From contig OZ001293.3 of NCBI GenBank assembly GCA_963921275.4, positions 1,824,001 through 1,888,000 on the forward strand: 64,000 bases of DNA, read 5' to 3'. Below, one piece after another: positions 10,951 through 55,425 of the stretch (positions within the stretch are counted from its first letter, which is position 1; the number at the start of each line of letters is the position of its first letter). Under the pieces are notes generated by a model. That model did no database searches. It was not told the DNA's origin and worked only from the letters and a program-made list of their open reading frames with translations. Made by a program: the position numbers and the translations under genes. The stretch is from an uncultured Hormoscilla sp. (GTDB taxonomy: Bacteria > Cyanobacteriota > Cyanobacteriia > Cyanobacteriales > Desertifilaceae).

Positions 10951-13137
10951 GCGTTGGTGGCAAAACACAAGAGGGATGCGTGATGGGTGGAGGAATTTAT
11001 CTGATTCAGGATAACGACCAGCTAGTTGAAATGACAGAACAACCCTATGAATCGGAAGAAAGACTGCAAGAACTGCTGGAAAAATATCCTAACCTCTTGG
11101 CAGGAGACCAGATAGATAGAGCAACGCCGAGACGATGGTTGTTAATCTCACGAGAAGTAAAATTACCTCTGGAAGAGGATAGCAATGAACAATGGTCTCT
11201 GGATCATTTGTTTGTGGATCACGATGCAATTCCGACCCTGGTGGAAGTCAAGGGGAACAGCAATACTCGCATCCGGCGAGAAGCGATCGGTCAGATGCTC
11301 GACTACGCTGCAAATATGATCGTTTACTGGCCAGTTGAGTCAATAGTTAGCCAGTTTGAAGCAAATTGTAAGTCTCAGGATAAAGATCCCGAACAGGTAT
11401 TTGAGGAATTTCTCGGGGTTGATGCTGACGAAGAGAAGTTTTGGCAAAAGGTCAAAACTAATCTGCAAGCGGGAAAACTGCGTCTTGTCTTTGTCTCAGA
11501 TGAGATAGTGGCGGAACTGCGGCGTGTGGTGGAGTTTCTGAATGAAAAGATGGACCCGGTAGAAGTATTGGGAGTGGAGATTAAGCAATACGTGAGTGCG
11601 GAGGGTCTAAAAACGCTGGTTCCCAGAGTGATTGGTAAGACAACAGAAGCGCAGCAGAAAAAATCCAGTGCGACTCTGGAGAGAAGACGCTGGGACGAAG
11701 TCTCATTCTTTCAGGAATATCAAGTTAGACAAGGTCCAGATGAAGCTCAGATAGCTAGAAAGATATATGAATGGGCTAAGAGCCAAAAAACATTAGTGGA
11801 AGTTCAGTGGGGTACAGGAGACACCTATGGCGGGTTTGTTGTTTGGGTGTCGGAAGAACCCCGATCGGCTTCTGAGCTGTTCCAGGTGGGGATTAATGGC
11901 AGACTACAGGTATCCTCTAGCACCTATGCAGCCTTCCCACAATTTAATAGTAATGAAAAATGGATGGAACTGAGAAGTAAACTGAGTGTCATTGGTCTGT
12001 CCCTGCCGATATCTCCTACTGAAAGAAGATTGACAACTTTTCAGTTGTCTAATTGTTTGCAGGATGAATTTGCCCTGGGGCGGGTGAATTAGGGGTCGAG
12101 CTGGGAATCGCTTCCCAACCCTCCCTTTCGAACCGTGCATGCGGTTTTCATCGCACACGGCTACTGGTTAGTTGGACCTTGTCATTGGCAGGATTACTGG
12201 GGATTGCTCCCTTTGTCCCTCTTCTTATGCAGTTTTTCCCCTTTATGGTAGTCGATAGGACTGTTTCGTATCTAGCTCCGGAAGGTTCGCGGGGGGTATC
12301 CAGGAAACCACTTATACCGCTCTTTGCTAACATTGCCCCTGTCTCGTCATTAGGGGACTTTTCAAGTTTTACCCGGCTAGAGTTTTAGTCCATATTACAA
12401 TCTAGGATTTCTCCTGATTTTTGGTACGTATTAGGGATACTTCCACCCAAGATTTCCAACTATATCCGACCCACGTCTGCCGGTACATTCCTGCACCACT
12501 TATACAAGGAGTTACCCCTGTCCTTTGCTTCTTGGGCCATCTCTCTCCACATGGCTTACGCTTATCATCTAACTGGTCCCTATCTCCTGACCACCGGTCG
12601 ATAGTCGAGTAGTTATGGACAGCACACGTGGAGTTACTTCGTTCCCTGGTATCATTTCACGATGTTTTTAGGTCCCTGCTTTACCCCGGGAGCTACTTTG
12701 AGTGTGATGTTGGCCATATGCAACAGCCAACACTAGCTACCATTTCCTTTTTAGGCCAGCGTGTAAGCCTTCTTCCGCTGGTTACACATAACGAGGCTTT
12801 CACAGATTCGTTTTCCTAACCATGAGCATCTTTCCTAGCGGAGTTGCCGACTTTGGGCTGTCAGCTATCCTACATTTAAGTCCTTGCTCCGCACCACGGT
12901 GATGTCACTCCGCAGCACTAAGGACCGGTGTCACCCCCACACCTGGGGAGAGGGAATTTAATCCCCATGATGACCAGAGTTACCATATTGAGCCTGATTA
13001 TGATTAGTTTTGGTTCTAAACATTCAGTCCAATTTTGGCTCGGCTTTTCCGTGTTTGTACAGGTTAGGCCGAAACGAGTCGCACTACAAACTTTTGATTG
13101 GGTGGTTGAGCAAATCTTACCTTCATCAGAGGCGTAG
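10947..13137 (+). pseudogene. Putative PD-(D/E)XK nuclease-like protein whose 3' end is interrupted by an antisense group II intron
   Basis: LDHLFVD...LVEVK...GQMLDYA motif. Joining 12087 to 13085 gives ...LGRV-IQTFDWVVEQILPSSEA*. Confidence 0.65.
12088..13084 (-). ncRNA. ORF-less group II intron (IIB-like), copy 1
   Basis: 5' GTGCG; domain V AGCCGTGTGCGATGAAAACCGCATGCACGGTT; domain VI ending CTCGACCCCTAAT; clean removal restores the host frame; no RT ORF. Confidence 0.92.
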
Positions 13138-19008: not shown

Positions 19009-19881
19009 GGGCGTGTCATCAATTAAGCCATATTACAGCTGCCGCGAGGTAGATGGCACCCAAGAAATTGCGAGCCGTTTTATCGTAGCGTGTCGCCAGA
19101 GCCCTGTATTGCTTGAGTTTTTGGAATAGATTTTCAATTAGATGCCGCCACTTGTACATTTCTTCATCGTATTCTCTGTGTTCTGTGCGGTTACTTTTTG
19201 GAGGAATGACAGCCATCCAATCCGCCTCTTTCAGGCGCTCGAGCACACGTTGTTCCGCATCATAGGCTTTATCTGCAAGCAGCGCGCCAATCTCACCGAT
19301 TTTATCCAATAGCACGTCAGCGCCTTTCCCGTCGTGGGCTTGACCAGGGGTAAGATGAAATCCTGTGGGATTGCCTTGGGCAATCGCAAGTGGCATGAAT
19401 CTTTGTCGATAGTCCCCCTTTACTACGGCCTATGGCTTGGGTTTCGCACGTATCTGAGGGTGTTTTTTTTTGCACCCGCACGCTCGTTGATGGGCACGCA
19501 GGATGGTGGCATCAATCGCGGCGTATTCGTTATCGGCGTCTGAGGCCAAGACATCGAATACCTGCTTCCAAACTCCCTTTTCAGACCAACGGGTATGGCG
19601 GGTATGAACAACCCGAAAATCCCCAAAACACTCCGGTAAATCCCGCCAGGGAATGCCAGCACGATATCGATATAACACGGCAGAACACGAATAATCTATT
19701 GTTCTTGGCTGTAGCGCCTGGGTCACCCTCTTTACCAGGTAAAAGGTGTTCAATCCGTTCCCACTGGTCGTCTCGCAAGCCATAGCGTCTCATATCATGC
19801 CCTCTTGATTGTTATTGCTGGATAAGGACTCCATACCGTATCCATCTATTTCTGTCAAGCAATTTGATTGATGACACACCC
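19009..19881 (-). mobile_element. IS5-family (IS427-like) element with frameshifted transposase
   Basis: TIRs GGGCGTGTCATCAAT / ATTGATGACACACCC flanked by [23 protein letters not shown] and ATRYDK motifs. Confidence 0.92.
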
Positions 19882-20954: not shown

Positions 20955-23051
20955 TAGCGTTTCTCATAGTCATGAGGTACAGTAACAGCAGTGAGCAAAC
21001 CAATTGTGAATGTCTTGCTGACTTACCTGTAGAATAGCATCTGCAATTGCCTCGATTAAATCTTTATAGGTTCTTGCTTTAACTTTCCTTAAAAAAGCGG
21101 TTCTTCTCAATCTAGTATGCTAAAATAGGTCTTGAATAGGCGTTGATGCGCCCGCTCAACGGGAGATCCTGAAAGCCGGAAAACCTTTTATACCTTGACA
21201 TTCAGCTTATAGTTGTGGTATAATACGCTCTCTAGAAAAAACAGGGAGAATTTATAAGATGCCACGCTCGAAAAAATACTAACAACATTGTTAAACATTC
21301 CAGAGGTGAAAGTTGTCGGGTATACCGAGACTCATTTAACAGAAGTGATGATGACAATTGAGGGCAAGGTAATTATTTAGCTGTTTTAGCCGTGTCTCCT
21401 GGGAGCGCTATTCGCACTACCCAGGAGACACGGCGTGGACATTGAGAATAGCAAACTTCTGGAAATAGTTAAGTCTTGGCGACGATCTGCGTCTTGCTAT
21501 CATGGGATGTTGAATGCTATTGAAGAAGTGAGTATAGATATGTGGAAACCGTATCAAAGTTTAGTGGAAGAATTGATGCCTAATGCTGAAGTTATAGCTG
21601 ACCGTGTGACTAAGCAAGTAAATGAGGAATTAGATAATTGTCGAAAACAAATATGAAGCCCAAAAAATTAAGAAAAAGTCAGAAAAAGAAGAACTATTAT
21701 CTGGATTAAATAAAACTAAAAAATGAAGAAAAATTTAAAGAAGAACAAGAAATTAAGCTGAAAGAAATCCAAGAAAAAATTCCAAAATTGGGAAAAATGC
21801 ACCGTCTAAAGGAGCAGCTACGCATGATATATGAGAGATCCGGGAAAATCCCACCTTACAAATGATCGATTGGCTTCTAGATGCAAAAGAATATTTCCAC
21901 GTGTGAGGACAATTATTAGATGGTTCGGAGAAATTGTCGGTTATTTTGAATCGGGGACAATTCAAGAAACTGTGTCAGGAATAAATAACCGTCTCAAGTT
22001 AATTAAGCGTAGGGGATATGGGTTCAGAAATATGGAAAATTTTCGCTTGCGTAGTCTACTTTCCTGGTGCTTTTAGCATCAATCTAGCATACTAGATTGA
22101 GAAGAGCCAAAAAAGCTTTAACTTTAGACCAAAAGTTTTCAATTGGAGAAAAGGAGAATAAGGAGATAAATAAATTAATTTGGCGCCTACTTTTTCAATA
22201 GCTTCTCAAAGCATTTTACCTTGATGAATTTTAGCATTATCCATGACTACACAAGCATTTTCCCTGCGGTACTAAATCTATTACTATAAAAGCTTCAAAA
22301 GTTATCGCCGTAAAATTCTCTTATAGCTACTACTTTTTCTAATGACAAAGCACCAATTAATGAAACATTTTTTCCTCTTTTTTGAGGTTTACTCTCTCTG
22401 ACCCTTTTCCCTTTTAAACTTCTACCATACATCCAGTGCTAAATTTACATTCATCTACAAATAATAAGTCTTTAGGGTTAATGTCTGCTTTCCCAATATT
22501 TTACTCTTTTTTCAAATACATCGTTCTTTTTATGTGCAAAGGTTTTTTTTGTAGTTTAATTTTTGAGTAATTCTTCTCATTGTCTCCCACGTTTTTTCAT
22601 AAAGCAATTCACATAACTCTTCAAGCGTTGCATCATTATTAGTCTCCATAATTTCTACTAAACTAACTAATTGCTCACTATTCAACTTAGTCGGTGGACT
22701 ACAGACGTTTGGGTCTAATATCGCCTGTTTCTTTATATTGCTTAATCAAGTTTTGAATAAAACTCTTGGCCGAAAACCTTGAGCTAATTTACGAAGAGAT
22801 GTCTTTTCCTGTTCGTAAACTTCTATTAGTTTTTGTCTAAAGTCTATTGAATATGGTTTCATCGCTTTCCTAACACTCCTTTTTGAACTTACTTTTATTA
22901 TAGCGAGCCGGGCATCATTTGTGCAAATATCGCTCTCCCGAGCACCTGCGGCTCAAACCATTACCCTTGCAGGGTAATGGTTTGAGCAAAAATCGCTGCC
23001 CGACTCTTGCAAGGCTTACTATATTGTACCTCATAACTCTGAGAAATGCTA
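20955..23051 (-). mobile_element. Degraded IS630-family element interrupted by ISL3
   Basis: TIRs TAGCGTTTCTCATAGTCATGAGGTACA / TGTACCTCATAACTCTGAGAAATGCTA; MKPYSIDFRQK start at 22862. Confidence 0.85.
21099..22108 (+). mobile_element. Internally deleted ISL3-family element
   Basis: TIRs GG(T/C)TCTTCTCAATCTAGTATGCTA; 8-bp TSD AAAAAAGC; VSIDMWKPY and GINNRLKLIKRRGYGFRN motifs. Confidence 0.92.
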
Positions 23052-23849: not shown

Positions 23850-24534
23850 CTTCATTTTCATCCCATCTGAGGGGATTCTCTATGATATATCACCTGATGT
23901 AGTGATCTGCTCTCTCGTCGCTGTATTTCGTCATGGTAACCGCGCTGCCATAAGGTGCCCGAATTGTGAATTAGGCGATTTACCGGCGCGTTGCTATTAA
24001 TTTGAAGTTTTGAACTATTGCCCCCAATGAAGCTGATTTTGTGCCGCGAGAGAGTTTATGGCCATAAGATTCTCGATCAATAACAGAGGTGCTTTGCTTC
24101 CTTACAGATTCCCTAATCACAATAATTACATGTACATGATTGGGCATGACTACAAAAGCATCCAATTCTACAAAGGTAAAATGACGCGGCAATTTAAACC
24201 AAGCTGCCTCAACCGTTGATCCGATGAGATTCGGTTGCATGACTCCATTGATAATTTCACATAACAAACATTGCCTTTTGTGACAGCAGATAGTGAGGGA
24301 GCATCTCACTTTTGTATTTGTATTCGCGAATGGTACGGAGCTAATTGCGAATTGTGAATGTAACTGTTTTATATTTTTGTTTACTATTTTTGATTTCCCG
24401 TTTCAAATTTTAAATTGCTAAATTTGCAAAACTGAGATGCACCCGATAGTGACATAATATGCACCAGCATTTCGATAATCATATCCTTGTAGGCGAATTG
24501 AGCGACGATGGTGTTTTTCGGGATTATACTTCAT
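23850..24534 (-). pseudogene. REP-associated tyrosine transposase (RAYT) interrupted by a MITE
   Basis: MKYNPEKHHRRSIRLQGYDY..GAYYVTIC, VVMPNHVH (HUH), SLGAIVQNFK; REP-like CGAATGCTTCGCCCCTAC at ~23821. Confidence 0.88.
24297..24444. mobile_element. 148-bp MITE
   Basis: TIRs GGGAGCATCTCA / TGAGATGCACCC; 8-bp TSD GATAGTGA; removal restores the RAYT frame. Confidence 0.9.
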
Positions 24535-24892
24535 ATCTGGACAGTGCGAAGTTCTTTGGGGAACTGCTCAAGCATGGAAGCGGGTTTGGGCCCGAGAGAC
24601 CTATATGCAACAATTCGCGGGCTCCTAAAGGCTGTAAGCCTTTCGTCCCAAGATGTTCAGCTTTTAGGATCGCTCCTATTTTCAGAGAACTTCCCACTCT
24701 TCAGAACGAGCGCAATCTTAAGGCTTATCGGAAACACTTCATACAACGGTTAGGGTTGTGGTTTTCGTTTGAGCGCTCTTCGTCGTTATGTTTAGCTTGG
24801 TGACGGGAGCTGCGATGAAAGTATTGATGGCACCATTCTACACTTGTGAACTAGCTCCTGCACGACAGACAAAAGTATACAACCAGGAGTAA

Positions 24893-29645: not shown

Positions 29646-30515
29646 ATGAAAACCAGCAGTTCATCCGATTTTTCCCCAACGGTGTTTGCAGTTCAATTCT
29701 GGGGAGTGCGAGGCAGCATTCCCGCCCCTGGTGAAGAAACAGTCCGCTATGGAGGCAATACCTCCTGCATAGAAATGCGAGTGGGTGGTAAGCGCCTGAT
29801 TTTTGATGGCGGCACTGGTATTCAGATGCTGGCCCTGGATCTCAAATCCCACAGGCCTCTAGAGGCCCATCTGTTTTTTACTCACTACCATTGGGACCAC
29901 ATCCAAGGGATACCATTTTTTACTCCCATGTTTACCCCCGGCAATCGCATCCACATCCGGGGCAACACCCCACCACCAGAAAGTCAATCCCTGGAAGAGC
30001 ATTTCCTGAATCGGGTAATGCATGTCTATTCGCCAGTACCAACGCCGACATTGCAAGCTGACCTGAAGTTCTCTAAATTAGAACCGGGTGAGGTGATGAT
30101 GCTAGAGGATATTAGCATCGAAACAGGTCTGCTGAACCATCCCAATGGGGCGATGGGATATCGCGTTACCTGGGACGGACACTCAGTTGTTTACTGCACT
30201 GATACAGAACATTACTTTGATCGCCTGGATAAAGATGTGCTACACCTGGCCCGTAACGCCGATGTCTTGATTTATGATGCCATGTACACGGATGAGGAAT
30301 ATCATAACCCCAAAGCTCCCAAGGTGGGATGGGGACATTCCACTTGGCAGGAAGGGGTGAAAGTGGCCAAGACGGCGGGGGTGAAGGAACTGGTGATTTT
30401 CCATCATGAACCCAACCACAATGATGATATCCTCAATCGGATCGCTCTTACTGTCAAAGAGGCTTTTCCCCATGCTGTACTTGCCCGAGAAGGGATGATT
30501 CTGCCAGTAATTTGA
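29646..30515 (+). CDS. MBL-fold metallo-hydrolase
   Basis: FWGVRGS, THYHWDH, WGHST and FHHEP motifs. Confidence 0.92.
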   Translation: MKTSSSSDFSPTVFAVQFWGVRGSIPAPGEETVRYGGNTSCIEMRVGGKRLIFDGGTGIQMLALDLKSHRPLEAHLFFTHYHWDHIQGIPFFTPMFTPGNRIHIRGNTPPPESQSLEEHFLNRVMHVYSPVPTPTLQADLKFSKLEPGEVMMLEDISIETGLLNHPNGAMGYRVTWDGHSVVYCTDTEHYFDRLDKDVLHLARNADVLIYDAMYTDEEYHNPKAPKVGWGHSTWQEGVKVAKTAGVKELVIFHHEPNHNDDILNRIALTVKEAFPHAVLAREGMILPVI

Positions 30516-31032
30516 GAATTGAGAATTGAGAATTGTAAATTGAGAATTGGGCGTTGCACCTAAAGGGGATGATGGTTGCTCTGTCAGTTGTCGGTTGTCA
30601 GTTGTCAGTTGTCATTAGATATGATATCTGGTCGATATTTGCCCTTGTACGTCGTTGTGCAACACGGCTGCGCCTGTTTTTATTTTTGAGAATTGAGAAT
30701 TGAGAATTGTAAATTGAGAATTGGGCGTTGCACCTAAGGGGATGATGGTTGCTCTGTCAGTTGTCGGTTGTCAGTTGTCAGTTGTCATTAGATATGATAT
30801 CTGGTCGATATTTGCCCTTGTACGTCGTTGTGCAACACGGCTGCGCCTGTTTTTATTTTTGAGAATTGAGAATTGAGAATTGTAAATTGAGAATTGGGCG
30901 TTGCACCTAAAGGGGATGATGGTTGATCTGTCAGTTGTCGGTTGTCAGTTGTCAGTTGTCATTAGATATGATATCTGGTCGATATTTGCCCTTGTACGTC
31001 GTTGTGCAACACGGCTGCGCCTGTTTTTATTT
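30513..31032 (+). repeat. ~174-bp near-identical tandem triplication containing heptamer repeats
   Basis: Units start at 30513, 30687 and 30860; each holds (TGAGAAT)n and (TGTCAGT)n. Confidence 0.95.
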
Positions 31033-31061: not shown

Positions 31062-31540
31062 ATGAGCGAAAAACACCATCACCGAATTTGATGTCTGCAT
31101 CATTGGGGCTGGCTGGTCGGAGCTGCTGTCCTGTAAATATGCGCTCTCCGCATCAGCGAGCGTGTTGTTGTGCTGGAACAGCGCGACTGGCTGGGTGGAG
31201 TCTGGAATTACAGTGACGACCCGAATATTATCACGGTCATGGAATCCACGTCGATGCCTTCGGGTAGTGCGAATACGATGTCTCCTGGGTAGTGCGATTA
31301 GCGCGAGATGTCTCTTGGGTAGTGCGACTAGCGCTCCCAAGAGACACCTCACCAGGAGACATCGAGCTCCCGAGAGGCATCGAAACCTCAAGCACGGTTC
31401 CCGAAAAATCGGCTACGGTGACGGAAGCCGCTGACTTTCCGATGAAACCGGAACTGGGGAATTTTCTTCATAGAAAGGACATTCAGGCCTACTTGGAAGA
31501 GTTGGTTGCTAGTAGCGCTAAACTTAAGCAACTCTCATAA
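31062..31540 (+). pseudogene. Flavin-containing monooxygenase N-terminal relic
   Basis: GGAGG RBS; FDVCIIGAGWS, VVLEQRDWLGGVWNY and DFPM...DIQAYLE; frameshifted and split by nested palindromes. Confidence 0.7.
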
Positions 31541-32146: not shown

Positions 32147-32366
32147 GGCTGTTTTTCTCCTTCTCTTATTATCTCAAACCGATGTGCGATGGGTAGTGCG
32201 AATACAATTGCTTTTGTGCTCAACTGCGATCGCGTAGCGTGCGCGCAGCGCAATCTTCGGGGACACCGATAGCGCAGCGCTGGGGGCGCAGCCATGCGCG
32301 CAGAGCACATCGCCTCGGATGAGAAGCTGGGTTTCCGATCGCGCTAGGGTGGCGCCAGCCATGCTT

Positions 32367-37847
<5,481 letters not shown>

Positions 37848-37924
37848 TATCTAACATCTTCGCTGTCTCCTGAGAGCTTTCGGTGTCCCCTCGGGGACAC
37901 CGAACTCGCACTACCCAGGAGATG

Positions 37925-38033
37925 GGGAGTATCATCCCCTAAACCGCCATTAATAGTATCATTTCCCCGACCACCATTAAGCAGGTCGTCACCGTCCGTA
38001 CCATCTATCAGATTGTCCCCTGCCTCGTTCCCA
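37925..38033 (-). pseudogene. Short RTX-repeat relic
   Basis: Translates as GNEAGDNLIDGTDGDDLLNGGRGNDTINGGLGDDT, then is cut by a palindromic element. Confidence 0.55.
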
Positions 38034-42178: not shown

Positions 42179-42307
42179 CCTTTAGCAATCAATTACCTGC
42201 GATGAAGCCATCTTTTGATGCCGTCGGAGTGTCGCGCTACTCGCACTACTCCTCGCGCGCGCATCGATGTGTCCCTTGACTCGCATTTATAAAATAGTAT
42301 CTCATGC

Positions 42308-43081: not shown

Positions 43082-43388
43082 ACGTTTCCTGGCCAGGTTG
43101 TAGTCAAAACCCGTTGGGAAATAAAAGGTCTGCGGTCAAGATATAGTGATTTGACTACGGCCCCGTGTCCCTCCCTTTTGTGCGAATACGATATCTCCTG
43201 GATAATGGGATTACGATGTTTTTCGGGTAGTGCGACAGCGATCTTTTTTTCTGCCGCCGCTTTCGGAGATAGTTGGCTCCCCCCAGCAGCACTAGCCCCG
43301 GAATAGGGAAAAATTCCCAAAGTACACTCGCACCACTGTTGCTATACTCCCAACGGTCAGAAACTGCGTTTTTTGGAACAGTACAGAA

Positions 43389-45454: not shown

Positions 45455-45899
45455 CTCATACCTTCCATCCTAGTCTAAAAATGCAAATTTGTCAAATATG
45501 CTTTTTGGCGCTCTATCTTTGAACGGGAAACTGTTAGGAAACTGTTATCCCGCCTTCCGTGTCTCGTGGTCGCTCGATGTTCCTCGGGAACTCTTGCGAA
45601 GGCCGCGCTAGTCGCACTACCCAAGAGACTCGCACTACCCGGGGAACATCGTACTCGCACTACCCACGAGACACGGATGGTTCAAACCCCCTGCTAATAG
45701 CTAAAGGAAACTGTTATCCCGCAGGGGGTTCCAAACTCCCTGCTAATAGCTAAAGTCGGTTGAAAACCGACTAAAAACATTGTCTATTTGGTATTATACC
45801 CCACGCGATCGCGCCCCAAGCAAGAAACCGGGTAATGCCGACAATTTTGGCATCTTGACCGAGATTTTACTCTTGAACTCGGTTTCTGAACCGGAATGC

Positions 45900-48495: not shown

Positions 48496-48758
48496 AACGG
48501 GCTGTGTCCCCCGGGTAATGCGATTAGCGCGCTGCGTCTCCTCTTTTGTGTGAATATGATGTCCCCCTCGCCGTGCGTCCGGGGGACATCAAGCTCCCAG
48601 GAGACGCAGCACCGAGGGACACAGGAAGTGTAGGGGGCCGAGCTCGTCCAGAGGGGGTTGGCAACGGTCCTATACAGTTGAGAGGAAATAATGAAATAGG
48701 CTTGACAAAGAAAAAATTGTAATATAGTAATAGTTAAGGGTTCAGGAGAGTAACTATT

Positions 48759-54877: not shown

Positions 54878-55425
54878 AATAATAGCTGCCACTTTTGCGG
54901 TGATGCACCGATGCCTGAGGGGTTTTTGCGAAGCATCCCGAAGGCATCGAAGCGCTGATACCGTCAGGTTGCAAGACCTGACCTTTTTCCGTGACCCCAT
55001 AGATAACCCAGTGGTCGCCACATTCTATGGGATGATGGACGGTACATTCCAGATAAGCTAAAGCCTCAGTCAGAATGGGACAACCATTATCACCGGTATC
55101 CGTTGACAAACCAGCCAAGCGGTCTTCTCTCGGGGCAAAGCGTTTCATGAAGTGCTTCTGTAGCTGCTTCCCCTCACTCAGGATGTTCACGACAAATTTG
55201 TCTCCCGTGTGCATTAGAGATTCATCACCCGTTCTTTGGCCATCGTTGGGGGTAAATTTGACCCGGATGGGTTCAAAGCCAAACTTATAGCCAGCATCTT
55301 TCAATTTACCTTCGATCTGATCGATCGCTTCCCCACTCCAGCCGTAGGAACCAAAAACACCCGCGAGTTTATTTTTCGAGGCCGTCGAGATCGTGATGCC
55401 CAAAGCAGTTTGAATTTGGGTCGGC
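54878..55425 (-). pseudogene. Deleted Flv1-like C-terminal relic
   Basis: PTQIQTALG..GVFGSYGWSGEAID..LAYLEC..VHHRKSGSYY, with an internal deletion and a palindrome insert. Confidence 0.8.

Follow-up and report, generated by a model that had tools for sequence, protein, structure and literature searches.

Hairpins inside hairpins: a probable very small mobile element of Hormoscilla that enters its own loop

How does a hairpin come to lie in the loop of another hairpin, and that one in the loop of a third? The question is raised by a 133-nt stretch at positions 31251-31383 of a 64,000-nt window from the genome of an uncultured Hormoscilla species, a sponge-dwelling cyanobacterial genus of the order Gomontiellales. 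The window, by which we mean the whole stretch of DNA that was analysed, corresponds to C1:1824001-1888000 of the 7.03-Mb source genome (called G000 here; 47.4% G+C, 4754 HIP1 octamers). Most probably, what we have here is a Russian-doll stack built from a mobile hairpin element that is very small and non-autonomous. Comparison of close relatives indicates that the family is recently mobile, whole hairpins or whole nests having been gained between them.

The triple nest and its hairpin family

Read directly from the sequence, window positions 31251-31383 form a three-deep nest of a 44-46-nt hairpin, with the letters and the three concentric arm pairs that the first-pass annotation of this DNA had reported. 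A repeat search placed the inner arms at 31305-31319 and 31336-31350 (15 nt, 93% complementarity), the middle arms at 31276-31288 and 31352-31364 (13 nt, 100%), and the outer arms at 31251-31272 and 31362-31383 (22 nt, 73%). The outer hairpin (+) begins with T31251, an arm at 31252-31264 and the left part of its loop at 31265-31275 (TAGTGCGAATA), while its right side consists of the loop part AGCTC (31365-31369), the arm 31370-31382 and A31383. Into this loop, after loop position 11, has entered the middle hairpin (31276-31364, +), with arms at 31276-31289 and 31352-31364 and a loop of its own at 31290-31305, TAGTGCGATTAGCGCG; our parser puts it at 31277-31363, with one 44-nt break. The innermost hairpin is an intact monomer (31306-31349, +) that has a 14-bp stem with one mismatch and the loop TAGTGCGACTAGCGCT, and it entered the middle loop after position 16, with CA at 31350-31351 coming next. 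It scores 66.8 bits (E 5.5e-16) against our covariance model of the family, R1.

Several observations set the nest apart from chance sequence. The string GGGTAGTGCGANTA recurs three times in register within it, spaced 25 and 30 nt apart, and TAGTGCGA occurs 13 times in the window, against a mean of 1.41 and a maximum of 4 in shuffled sequence, none of 100 shuffles reaching 13. The 146-nt triple-nest stretch folds as a single three-storey hairpin at -46.9 kcal/mol as DNA (z = -8.96) and at -85.7 kcal/mol as RNA (z = -10.21), and an equally good fold was found in none of 200 shuffles, DNA or RNA.

The monomer of the family consists of a 14-nt arm, a near-invariant 16-nt loop, TAGTGCGA-N-TAGCGCT, and a second 14-nt arm, 44-46 nt in all; a 15th stem pair, T..A or G..C, is frequent in monomers. 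Genome-wide, TAGTGCGA occurs 602 times and GGGTAGTGCGA 319 times. At 287 of the 602 sites the upstream 12 nt have a complementary partner no more than 500 nt away. For 139 of these the partner lies at monomer distance, and the remaining partners lie farther off, with peaks at 47-58, 86-101 and 137 nt that correspond to one, two and three inserted units. The bases that follow GTAGTGCGA-N can also be sorted: TAGCGCT marks an intact loop (135 cases), TA[CT]GATG a further copy entering (102), TAGCGCG a host with an insert after position 16 (type B, below) or a GCGCG loop variant (58), TTCGGTG a junction of type C (12), and TCGTT the start of a group II intron (47).

At least 150 copies in G000 were recovered with R1. 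As the first-pass annotation had noted for the layers, the stems differ and still pair. Among 155 distinct uninterrupted copies, changes on both sides are found at 13 of the 14 stem pairs, and the doubly changed cells number 416, where shuffles give 107 on average and 137 at most. In an alignment of 34 copies, hand-picked for diversity from G000 and its congeners, both sides have changed at 12 of 14 pairs, with 102 such cells against 24.5 in shuffles, of which 0 of 500 were as high; in slid controls, pairing drops to 32-55%. The loop is conserved at 90-100% per position in the 155 copies, position 9 excepted. It would seem that only copies still able to fold get copied, and the stem covariation would follow from this.

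Nesting rules and turnover between congeners

An iterative parser resolved 231 hairpins, comprising 191 uninterrupted copies, 35 depth-1 hosts and 5 depth-2 hosts, a count that is too low, because 102 type A junctions exist. The self-targeting that the first-pass annotation had proposed is borne out by these hosts, as inserts stand at fixed points of host loops and share the orientation of the host in 38 of 40 cases, the two exceptions sharing the same entry point. Its statement that new layers enter just 3' of TAGTGCGA needs to be corrected, since entry is instead after loop position 11 (TAGTGCGANTA^) or 16 (TAGTGCGANTAGCGCG^). Three junction types can be told apart. Type A, TAGTGCGANTA^[CGATG..CATCG]^AGC(T/G), with about 24 parsed cases, and type C, ..GAGTT^[CGGTG..CACCG]^AAAGCT, with 5, both enter after position 11, and type B, TAGTGCGANTAGCGC(G/C)^[CTGNG.. 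or AGGTG..]^CACC, with about 10, enters after position 16. In the triple nest, the middle hairpin has a type A junction and the innermost monomer a type B junction. Once entered, a loop has a right half 2 nt shorter than that of an intact one (AGCGCT becomes AGCT); no uninterrupted loop in the genome has the AGCT form, and the same loss is seen in paralogues with empty and filled loops, of which there are two pairs only. Type A junctions number 102, 1, 25, 28 and 30 in the five congeners, with 0 for a reversed-pattern control. A composite of the host CGATGTCTCCGGAG and an insert with the odd arm CGGTGTCCACCGGG, recognisable by an odd mismatch common to its copies, is found at 3-4 loci with unrelated flanks, and nests are therefore copied as units. 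An IS1-type insertion sequence (IS) element (open reading frame (ORF) ..NLICKNCGRQFIEHYSPRGYPKEF..) lies at C1:1992685-1994632, exactly at entry point A (TAGTGCGAATA^) of a hairpin loop.

Outside of hosts, 135 de-duplicated free copies share a target context, R-A-T-G-A at -10..-6 from the arm and A-A-G-G downstream, and these flanks are present in all four main stem classes. The free-site motif lies 5 nt from the junction, and it can be regarded as part of the target because it is found in empty sites as well; AGCGCT is absent from free sites. Equally far ahead of entry point A, the loop itself has A-G-T-G-C, and the self-targeting would be explained by this. We infer that the loop carries the family's own preferred target, and that this is why copies nest in loops.

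Mobility is indicated by empty sites, both orthologous and paralogous, for elements of this family. The nearest congener, G002, is 92-98% identical to G000 across common segments, and its orthologous site is without any of the 133 nt of the triple nest, reading ...GGAATCCAC CGTC ACCTCAAGC.... One contig of run X4, which is perhaps not independent of G002, also has the empty form of this site, and contigs of runs X1, X3 and X5 are filled. Between G000 and the 1.6 Mb of G002 that were compared, 161 motif sites correspond; 105 of them are equal in length, and the length differences cluster at 43-46 nt (13 sites), 93-95 nt and 135-138 nt. For the parsed hairpin loci of G000, length was the same in G002 at only 3 of 19. 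The individual sites show the unit that comes and goes. At C1:4559630 the insert is exactly a 44-nt hairpin (upstream flank AATGATTTTG); at C1:590386, g2D:97203 and C1:4718604 it is a hairpin plus AA, with a 1-nt overlap, the first C being present in the empty site; and at g2A:45655 it is 44 nt with a 4-nt ambiguity (CGGA). Larger units were gained with identical flanks at C1:676364 (a 137-nt triple) and C1:2815214 (an 85-nt double). Within G000, the paralogues C1:3164996 and C1:3683294 differ by a 44-nt insert without target duplication, and there are paralogous pairs in which a loop is empty in one member and filled in the other. Filled and empty pairs at C1:2820240, g2A:388722 and C1:696708 are less clean. 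A target duplication was found in none of the filled and empty pairs that were compared, and the first-pass annotation was thus right that the element has neither target duplication nor coding capacity: the insertions are clean, without flanking repeats. The junctions are slightly ragged: they overlap by 0-4 nt, 0-2 additional A are present on the 3' side, and occasionally 2 nt of target are lost.

The family has a narrow distribution. A 22-position loop pattern, allowing no more than 1 mismatch, has 135, 25, 47, 52 and 79 matches in the five genomes of the genus and none in 36 further genomes from that family and order. R1 has no match in 120 other genomes of the order (73 genera), in a scan with strict filters in which 49 candidates per genome were scored. 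A 16-position loop pattern, GTAGTGCGANTAGCGC (15 specified bases), matched at least 97 stretches in a species-level collection; among the matches listed, the records with multiple matches are all Hormoscilla sp., and the single matches in unrelated phyla are consistent with chance. A 21-base loop pattern gave 0 matches in IMG/VR viral contigs, and JGI metagenome contigs likewise gave 0 loop-pattern matches. As far as searched, the hairpin family appears to be confined to Hormoscilla.

Other small repeats of these genomes also came into view. A diverged sister subfamily has the loop CAGTACGAGTAGTGCG (GGGCAGTACGAGTAGTGCGCCC) and is found at C1:2348178 and C1:3257674 in G000 and at g2C:293802 in G002, its presence differing between the two genomes by 45-nt units. 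In G002, a hairpin at g2B:267127 with the arms GGAAAAATCGG / CCGATTTTTCC has the same 16-nt loop as our family, so the loop module is found on an unrelated stem as well. A second, unrelated hairpin family, CTGAGGTTTGTAGTGAGGAC-N4-GTCCTCACTACAAACCTCAG followed by AAAAA and always beside TCGG, has 11 copies (C1:42015, 53846, 230042 and 8 more in G000, g2D:155328 in G002) and also differs in presence.

Candidate routes of copying

The mobilising enzyme would have to act in trans, and we searched for it in several ways. An autonomous long form was sought by extending the search for the partner arm to 8 kb, which gave 14 far pairs and no arm pair enclosing a transposase or other gene; the long cases are ISs or other repeats that have come to lie in a loop, the far pair that was opened being an IS1-type element. 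No neighbouring gene family is enriched among the 928 ORFs within 1 kb of the 191 copies. The recurring neighbours are families that are abundant everywhere, such as the intron reverse transcriptase (RT)/HNH proteins (7 of 67 genome copies) and IS5-like transposases (6 of 40), and ISL3 and IS630 recur near copies as passenger cases. The first-pass annotation had suggested looking for a co-occurring HUH, GIY-YIG or RT gene, and none adjoins the copies. PF01797 (Y1_Tnp) has two matches in the genome, including an intact gene at C1:241795-242139 (69.1 bits) that is followed by a different repeat. With the HUH pseudogene at ~23.86-24.55 kb of the window there are one intact and two broken Y1 genes, and none of these three has a hairpin of our family beside it. 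The window pseudogene (~23860-24550, -) is a broken RAYT/IS200-like HUH gene (RAYT, REP-associated tyrosine transposase; REP, repetitive extragenic palindrome) with the N-terminal MKYNPEKHHRRS.., an AT-rich insertion, the motif ..VVMPNHVHVII.. and a frameshift; a 109-aa piece of it has no Pfam match, and a different GTAG-type palindrome (GTAGGGGCGAAGCATTCGGG..) comes after it.

A candidate of another kind is suggested by the group II introns of this genome, in which a group II intron 5' end (GTGCGAYTCGTTY) is matched 439 times and one 3' end type 175 times. A 24-position intron start pattern has 273 matches in G000 against 0-12 in four congeners, and 0 of 36 other relatives have it. The five congeners fall into the same rank order for intron starts (273, 12, 10, 3, 0), loops (135, 79, 52, 47, 25) and nests (102, 30, 28, 25, 1). 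The 47 TCGTT cases after GTAGTGCGA-N are intron 5' ends (GTGCGAYTCGTT...). In one intron subfamily the 5' exons end in ...GTA (47 copies) or ...GTGC[A/G] (23 copies), and 3 of the latter 23 sit in hairpin loops, at TAGTGCG^A (^ marking the intron junction here); in two of these three, the loop goes on with A-N-T-(A/T) and then a nested hairpin. Given the GTA class of exons and the introns at TAGTGCG^A, the loop sequence GGGTA^GTGCGA therefore resembles a GTA exon followed by an intron start, and AGTGCG^A is truly used. The points 9 nt beyond GGGTA^ and AGTGCG^ fall exactly after loop positions 11 and 16, which are both of the hairpin entry points. The group II intron endonuclease nicks 9-10 nt downstream of the homing junction according to the portion of PMC4424553 on which we draw, and template switching by group II RTs is reported in bioRxiv 10.1101/792986.

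One such intron lies in the window itself: an ORF-less group II intron of 835 nt at 34488-35322 (-), whose 5' exon ends in ...GCTGTGCA and which is missing at the orthologous site of G002. It belongs to a subfamily whose 5' exon ends resemble the hairpin loop. Many intron copies in the genome are ORF-less and about 835 nt long, and an Intron_gpII feature is found at 12088-12165 (-) of the window as well. Group II introns that lack an ORF are called rare in bacteria in the part of the review PMC4424553 consulted.

On this sequence basis the route that we favour, as possible rather than probable, is one in which hairpin RNA is reverse-transcribed at nicks made by the group II intron endonuclease. 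The hairpin RNA would be cut back to the base of its stem and receive a short A tail, and the RT/endonuclease of the abundant introns would copy it into DNA, priming from a nick 9-10 nt downstream of a sequence that resembles an intron homing site. The loop would provide two such homing-like sequences (...GGGTA^ and ...AGTGCG^), with the entry points 9 nt on. Copying of an RNA at a nick would give the sense orientation and would place the 3' end beside the right flank, where the extra A's lie. A broader and more doubtful proposal makes the hairpins parasites of this genome's group II introns, or their partners. The loop would imitate, in portable form, two homing junctions (...GGGTA^G and ...AGTGCG^A). 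Having docked on the loop, the ribonucleoprotein of the intron would nick 9 nt downstream, and its RT would copy a free, A-tailed hairpin RNA into the nick.

A number of observations weigh against the intron route. Real intron 5' ends read GTGCGA too, in part after GTA, and 258 of 266 have no hairpin at the equivalent place, so the motif by itself does not make a target. The GGGTA^ site of hairpins was not found to hold an intron, and the 3' exon at that site would begin with G, where real 3' exons begin with A in 77% of cases. The target motif of the free copies (RATGA / RTGM) was not seen in real intron 3' exons and agrees only partly with the intron's AGTGCA, and when free sites are counted from the AGTGCR-like motif the hairpin lies at +4 rather than +9. 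G002 has gained hairpins of its own despite having only 3 matches to the intron pattern. The rank order of the five genomes is confounded by assembly quality (G001 is in 230 contigs and G003 in 570). The +9 coincidence was spotted after the fact, and its two offsets depend on each other, as the two homing-like junctions and the two entry points are each spaced by 5 nt. No gene linked to the hairpins was found among flanking genes, arm pairs or neighbour families. In the stems, G.T mismatches (51) and A.C mismatches (38) are about equal, so there is no wobble or strand signal for an RNA hairpin. As to the covariation measures, copies were preselected (at least 11 of 14 pairs) or hand-picked, by which the percentage of paired positions is inflated and the counts of double changes are not.

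Some features of the hairpin bring another enzyme to mind. Its loop starts with (G)GTAG, which in the consensus is followed by a mini-palindrome, GCG-ANTAG-CGC, and a REP/REPIN-type element might be moved as single-stranded DNA by a Y1 (HUH) transposase of the RAYT or IS200/IS605 kind; binding of the enzyme to the hairpin and to the GTAG where stem and loop meet would be followed by cutting and by insertion of the element into single-stranded DNA, extruded loops for instance. GTAG-tagged palindromes, cyanobacterial ones included, are tied to RAYTs in the sections of PMC3733652 used here, and compensatory changes also occur in REPIN hairpins according to those of PMC3116915. The absence of target duplication, the orientation-specific loop entry and the presence of an intact Y1_Tnp gene would all fit. 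However, none of the three Y1 genes is flanked by the hairpin of this family, and no RAYT is flanked by these hairpins in the way known for REPs and REPINs. In REPs and REPINs the GTAG stands 5' of the palindrome, whereas here it stands at the stem-loop junction, inside the loop of the main hairpin; and REPINs have conserved ends and a variable middle, the reverse of the Hormoscilla hairpin, whose ends vary around a conserved 16-nt middle. A replichore bias is likewise absent, the numbers of plus and minus copies (42/32 in one arm, 51/61 in the other) not differing significantly. IS200/IS605 chemistry is nucleotide-exact, and in contrast to elements derived from it the hairpins have a target motif 5 nt off and junctions that vary by 1-2 nt, with an extra A (0-2 A, 0-4 nt of overlap). 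Overall, we regard movement by a Y1 transposase as unlikely. Ragged junctions, together with the 2 nt of target lost on loop entry (AGCGCT to AGCT), are what would be expected if hairpin-shaped DNA were captured at breaks, or produced there by templated filler synthesis, with no dedicated mobility enzyme. Breaks would then favour extruded loops, for example at the AGCGCT palindrome, and staggered cuts at RGCGC^Y would give entry points A and B. The same manner of difference between G000 and G002 is shown by several small hairpin families that are unrelated, and an IS1-type element is also found at entry point A. Random capture would not lead one to expect the orientation rule (38 of 40) and the common upstream motif at free sites, AGCGCT is absent there, and the copy number and stem diversity indicate sustained replication of a lineage rather than accidents, which makes capture at breaks quite unlikely in our judgement. 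Break capture or some other route takes whatever remains once reverse transcription and Y1/HUH movement have been given their weight.

Two further explanations would do without mobility as the driving force, and the comparison of filled and empty sites speaks to both. If the hairpins were signals selected by the host (terminators, stabilisers of mRNA or protein-binding sites) and the stacks were by-products, one could point to very stable folds, to the conserved loop and to the location of the copies, since crude ORF calls put 118 of 191 outermost copies between genes, and by these calls only ~39% of the genome is non-coding. Within ORFs, 47 copies are antisense and 15 sense. On the other hand, length is kept at so few loci between the two congeners, as described above, and copies show no preferred orientation towards the genes beside them (in co-directional gene pairs, 23 to 15 and 15 to 15). 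The TGA upstream, considered as a gene stop and rejected, closes an ORF of 100 codons or more in 1 of 21 cases, there is no U-tract after the hairpin (the 3' flank consensus being AAGG), and copies occur inside IS elements and inside each other. Host selection of this kind appears very unlikely. Finally, the left halves in stacks are regularly spaced at 25-30 nt, which would suit tandem duplication or replication slippage of a palindrome, the process that the first-pass annotation had named as a possible refutation. However, the stem of every layer is its own and pairs with its own partner alone, some loops have an insert that their paralogues lack, and sites that are otherwise identical differ by an entire hairpin. 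Because the stems of the layers differ and whole hairpins come and go between genomes, local tandem duplication can be excluded for practical purposes.

Other copies, related repeats and meaning

Further copies in the window bear out part of what the first-pass annotation had listed. The monomer that it placed at 21389-21434 is perfect, with 14 of 14 pairs (21390-21433, -; R1 70.1 bits), and it is a passenger inside a multi-copy ISL3-type element: the same flanks are found at six or more other loci (at least 6), and one diverged copy of the element is without the hairpin. Near it lie a split IS5-like transposase gene (19019-19783, -) and an ISL3 transposase fragment (21831-22076, +). The inverted triple at 45557-45676 is a three-level nest (-) with the outer arms CCGTGTCTCGTGGG / CCACGAGACACGG, a type A junction and an innermost layer that has decayed; its inner part scores 28.9 bits. 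The mixed stacks turned out to be more varied. That at 48502-48624 (+) is indeed a three-level nest, its outer loop TAATGCGATTAGCGCG holding a type B insert, its middle layer having the variant loop start TTTTGTGTGAATA and a type A insert, and its innermost layer having an unrelated loop. At 37861-37925 (-) there is a host hairpin with the type C junction GAGTT^..^AAAGCTC, containing a 22-nt palindrome, CGGTGTCCCCGAGGGGACACCG, that has lost its loop. At 32177-32345 (+) there is a host of the GTGCTCTGCG stem subtype (R1 16.4 bits, weak), the loop of which is broken after TAGTGCGAATA by ~125 nt of other small repeats, and at 43160-43240 (+) there is a decayed stack of three successive left halves, with the right halves mostly gone. 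A degenerate single copy (R1 23.8 bits) is found at 42222-42258 (-), and there is a weak R1 match (21.5 bits, E 0.0019) at 54906-54952 (+). The TAGTGCGA matches at 13079 and 26319 have no surrounding hairpin and look like chance occurrences. A variant of the loop start, in which ..TGGG-TAG-TGCGA has become ..CCC-TTTTG-TGCGA and the inner stem pairs are spoiled, occurs at 48529-48541, at 43173-43187 and at many other sites in the genome; as an uninvaded monomer has it too (C1:5252315-5252378), it represents a subfamily rather than a scar of invasion.

The triple nest lies in a 1.15-kb spacer, with the genes for chorismate synthase and a hydrolase of the MBL fold on one side and a DUF29 gene on the other. 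Two ORFs run through the nest, and the spacer ORF there has no Pfam family match. Rfam, at its gathering threshold, has two Intron_gpII matches elsewhere in the window and nothing more, the hairpins remaining unmatched up to E 10. The spacer also contains other repeats: a CCGATTTTTCCGGAACGG-type mini-repeat at 31389-31403, with a 15-nt indel relative to G002 just right of the nest, and, to the left of the nest, a 28-nt segment that occurs three times in 30437-30885 at a spacing of ~173 nt, all three matching one segment of G002. The loop of the host at 32177-32345 is filled by a 22-nt repeat family (..GCGCAGCGTGGCGCAGCCAT..) at 32225-32300, and at C1:4710213 G000 and G002 differ by a 44-nt block (2 x 22) of this repeat.

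The first-pass annotation had thought the system undescribed. No published description of this hairpin family was found in the literature searched, and two publications on Hormoscilla genomes contain no mention of palindromes, hairpins, transposases or mobile elements in this sense. The kind of element, on the other hand, has a precedent, since nesting hairpin repeats were already described for Nostoc. Elhai et al. in 2008 reportedly defined small dispersed repeats, SDR1-8, in Nostoc punctiforme and its relatives, non-coding units of 21-27 nt, some of which are said to fold into a hairpin kept by compensatory changes and some to sit within their own copies; the mobilising enzyme was reportedly not known, and an RNA intermediate is said to have been proposed. 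The Hormoscilla hairpins are like the SDRs in being a very small, dispersed, non-coding cyanobacterial repeat with a compensated hairpin, and in lying inside their own copies (40 parsed hosts and 102 type A junctions). They differ in the unit, which at 44-46 nt is twice as long, and in the combination of an invariant loop, free stems and nucleotide-exact entry points, a separation made on described features. They also differ in lying outside the Nostocaceae, the lineage from which alone SDRs are reported in the excerpt of PMC5861425 available. We therefore see a real, recently active, non-autonomous family of mobile hairpins that targets its own loop and that is best filed with the SDR kind.

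Other well-known repeats share some of these traits. REPs and REPINs are also short extragenic palindromes with hundreds of copies, compensatory changes and a GTAG, and they too are non-autonomous and spread slowly within a genome; nesting into loops is unmentioned for them in the portions of PMC3116915 and PMC3733652 that we cite. The pairing of short interspersed elements (SINEs) with long ones (LINEs), and group II retrohoming, offer a likeness in the short non-coding unit, the A-rich 3' end, the +9 distance from a homing-like sequence and a genome packed with the candidate helper retroelement. Unlike products of target-primed reverse transcription of the SINE-on-LINE type, the hairpins have no target duplication, and their RNA and complementary DNA stages are putative. 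No case of a group II intron protein mobilising a foreign RNA in bacteria is known to us. Miniature inverted-repeat transposable elements (MITEs) are 70-300 bp long, with IS-derived terminal inverted repeats and target duplications. The hairpins resemble them in being non-autonomous, palindromic, multi-copy and present or absent between strains, and differ from them in the 44-nt unit, the lack of target duplication and the lack of a parent IS among those found. A cyanobacterial MITE, Nezha, is mentioned in the part of PMC3733652 consulted.

The route by which non-coding bacterial mini-repeats are copied has, to our knowledge, been an open question since the cyanobacterial SDRs were described in 2008, and no mechanism for their mobility was found in the literature searched. 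The Hormoscilla family is favourable for studying it, having hundreds of copies, recent turnover between congeners, a defined unit, two exact loop entry points, a strict orientation rule and nests that are copied whole, and the numerical match to the offset of the group II intron endonuclease makes the mobility question experimentally specific. There are practical consequences as well, as the hairpin stacks break short-read assemblies (the X1 and X3 contigs end within the nest) and inflate the number of spurious ORFs in symbiont genomes. If the hairpins were indeed parasites or partners of the introns, loop-in-loop stacks would result and fresh landing pads for introns would be spread over the chromosome, three introns already being found in loops. 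Such a relationship would be a bacterial counterpart of SINEs living on LINEs, and it would provide a concrete mechanism for the mobility of SDR-like mini-repeats.

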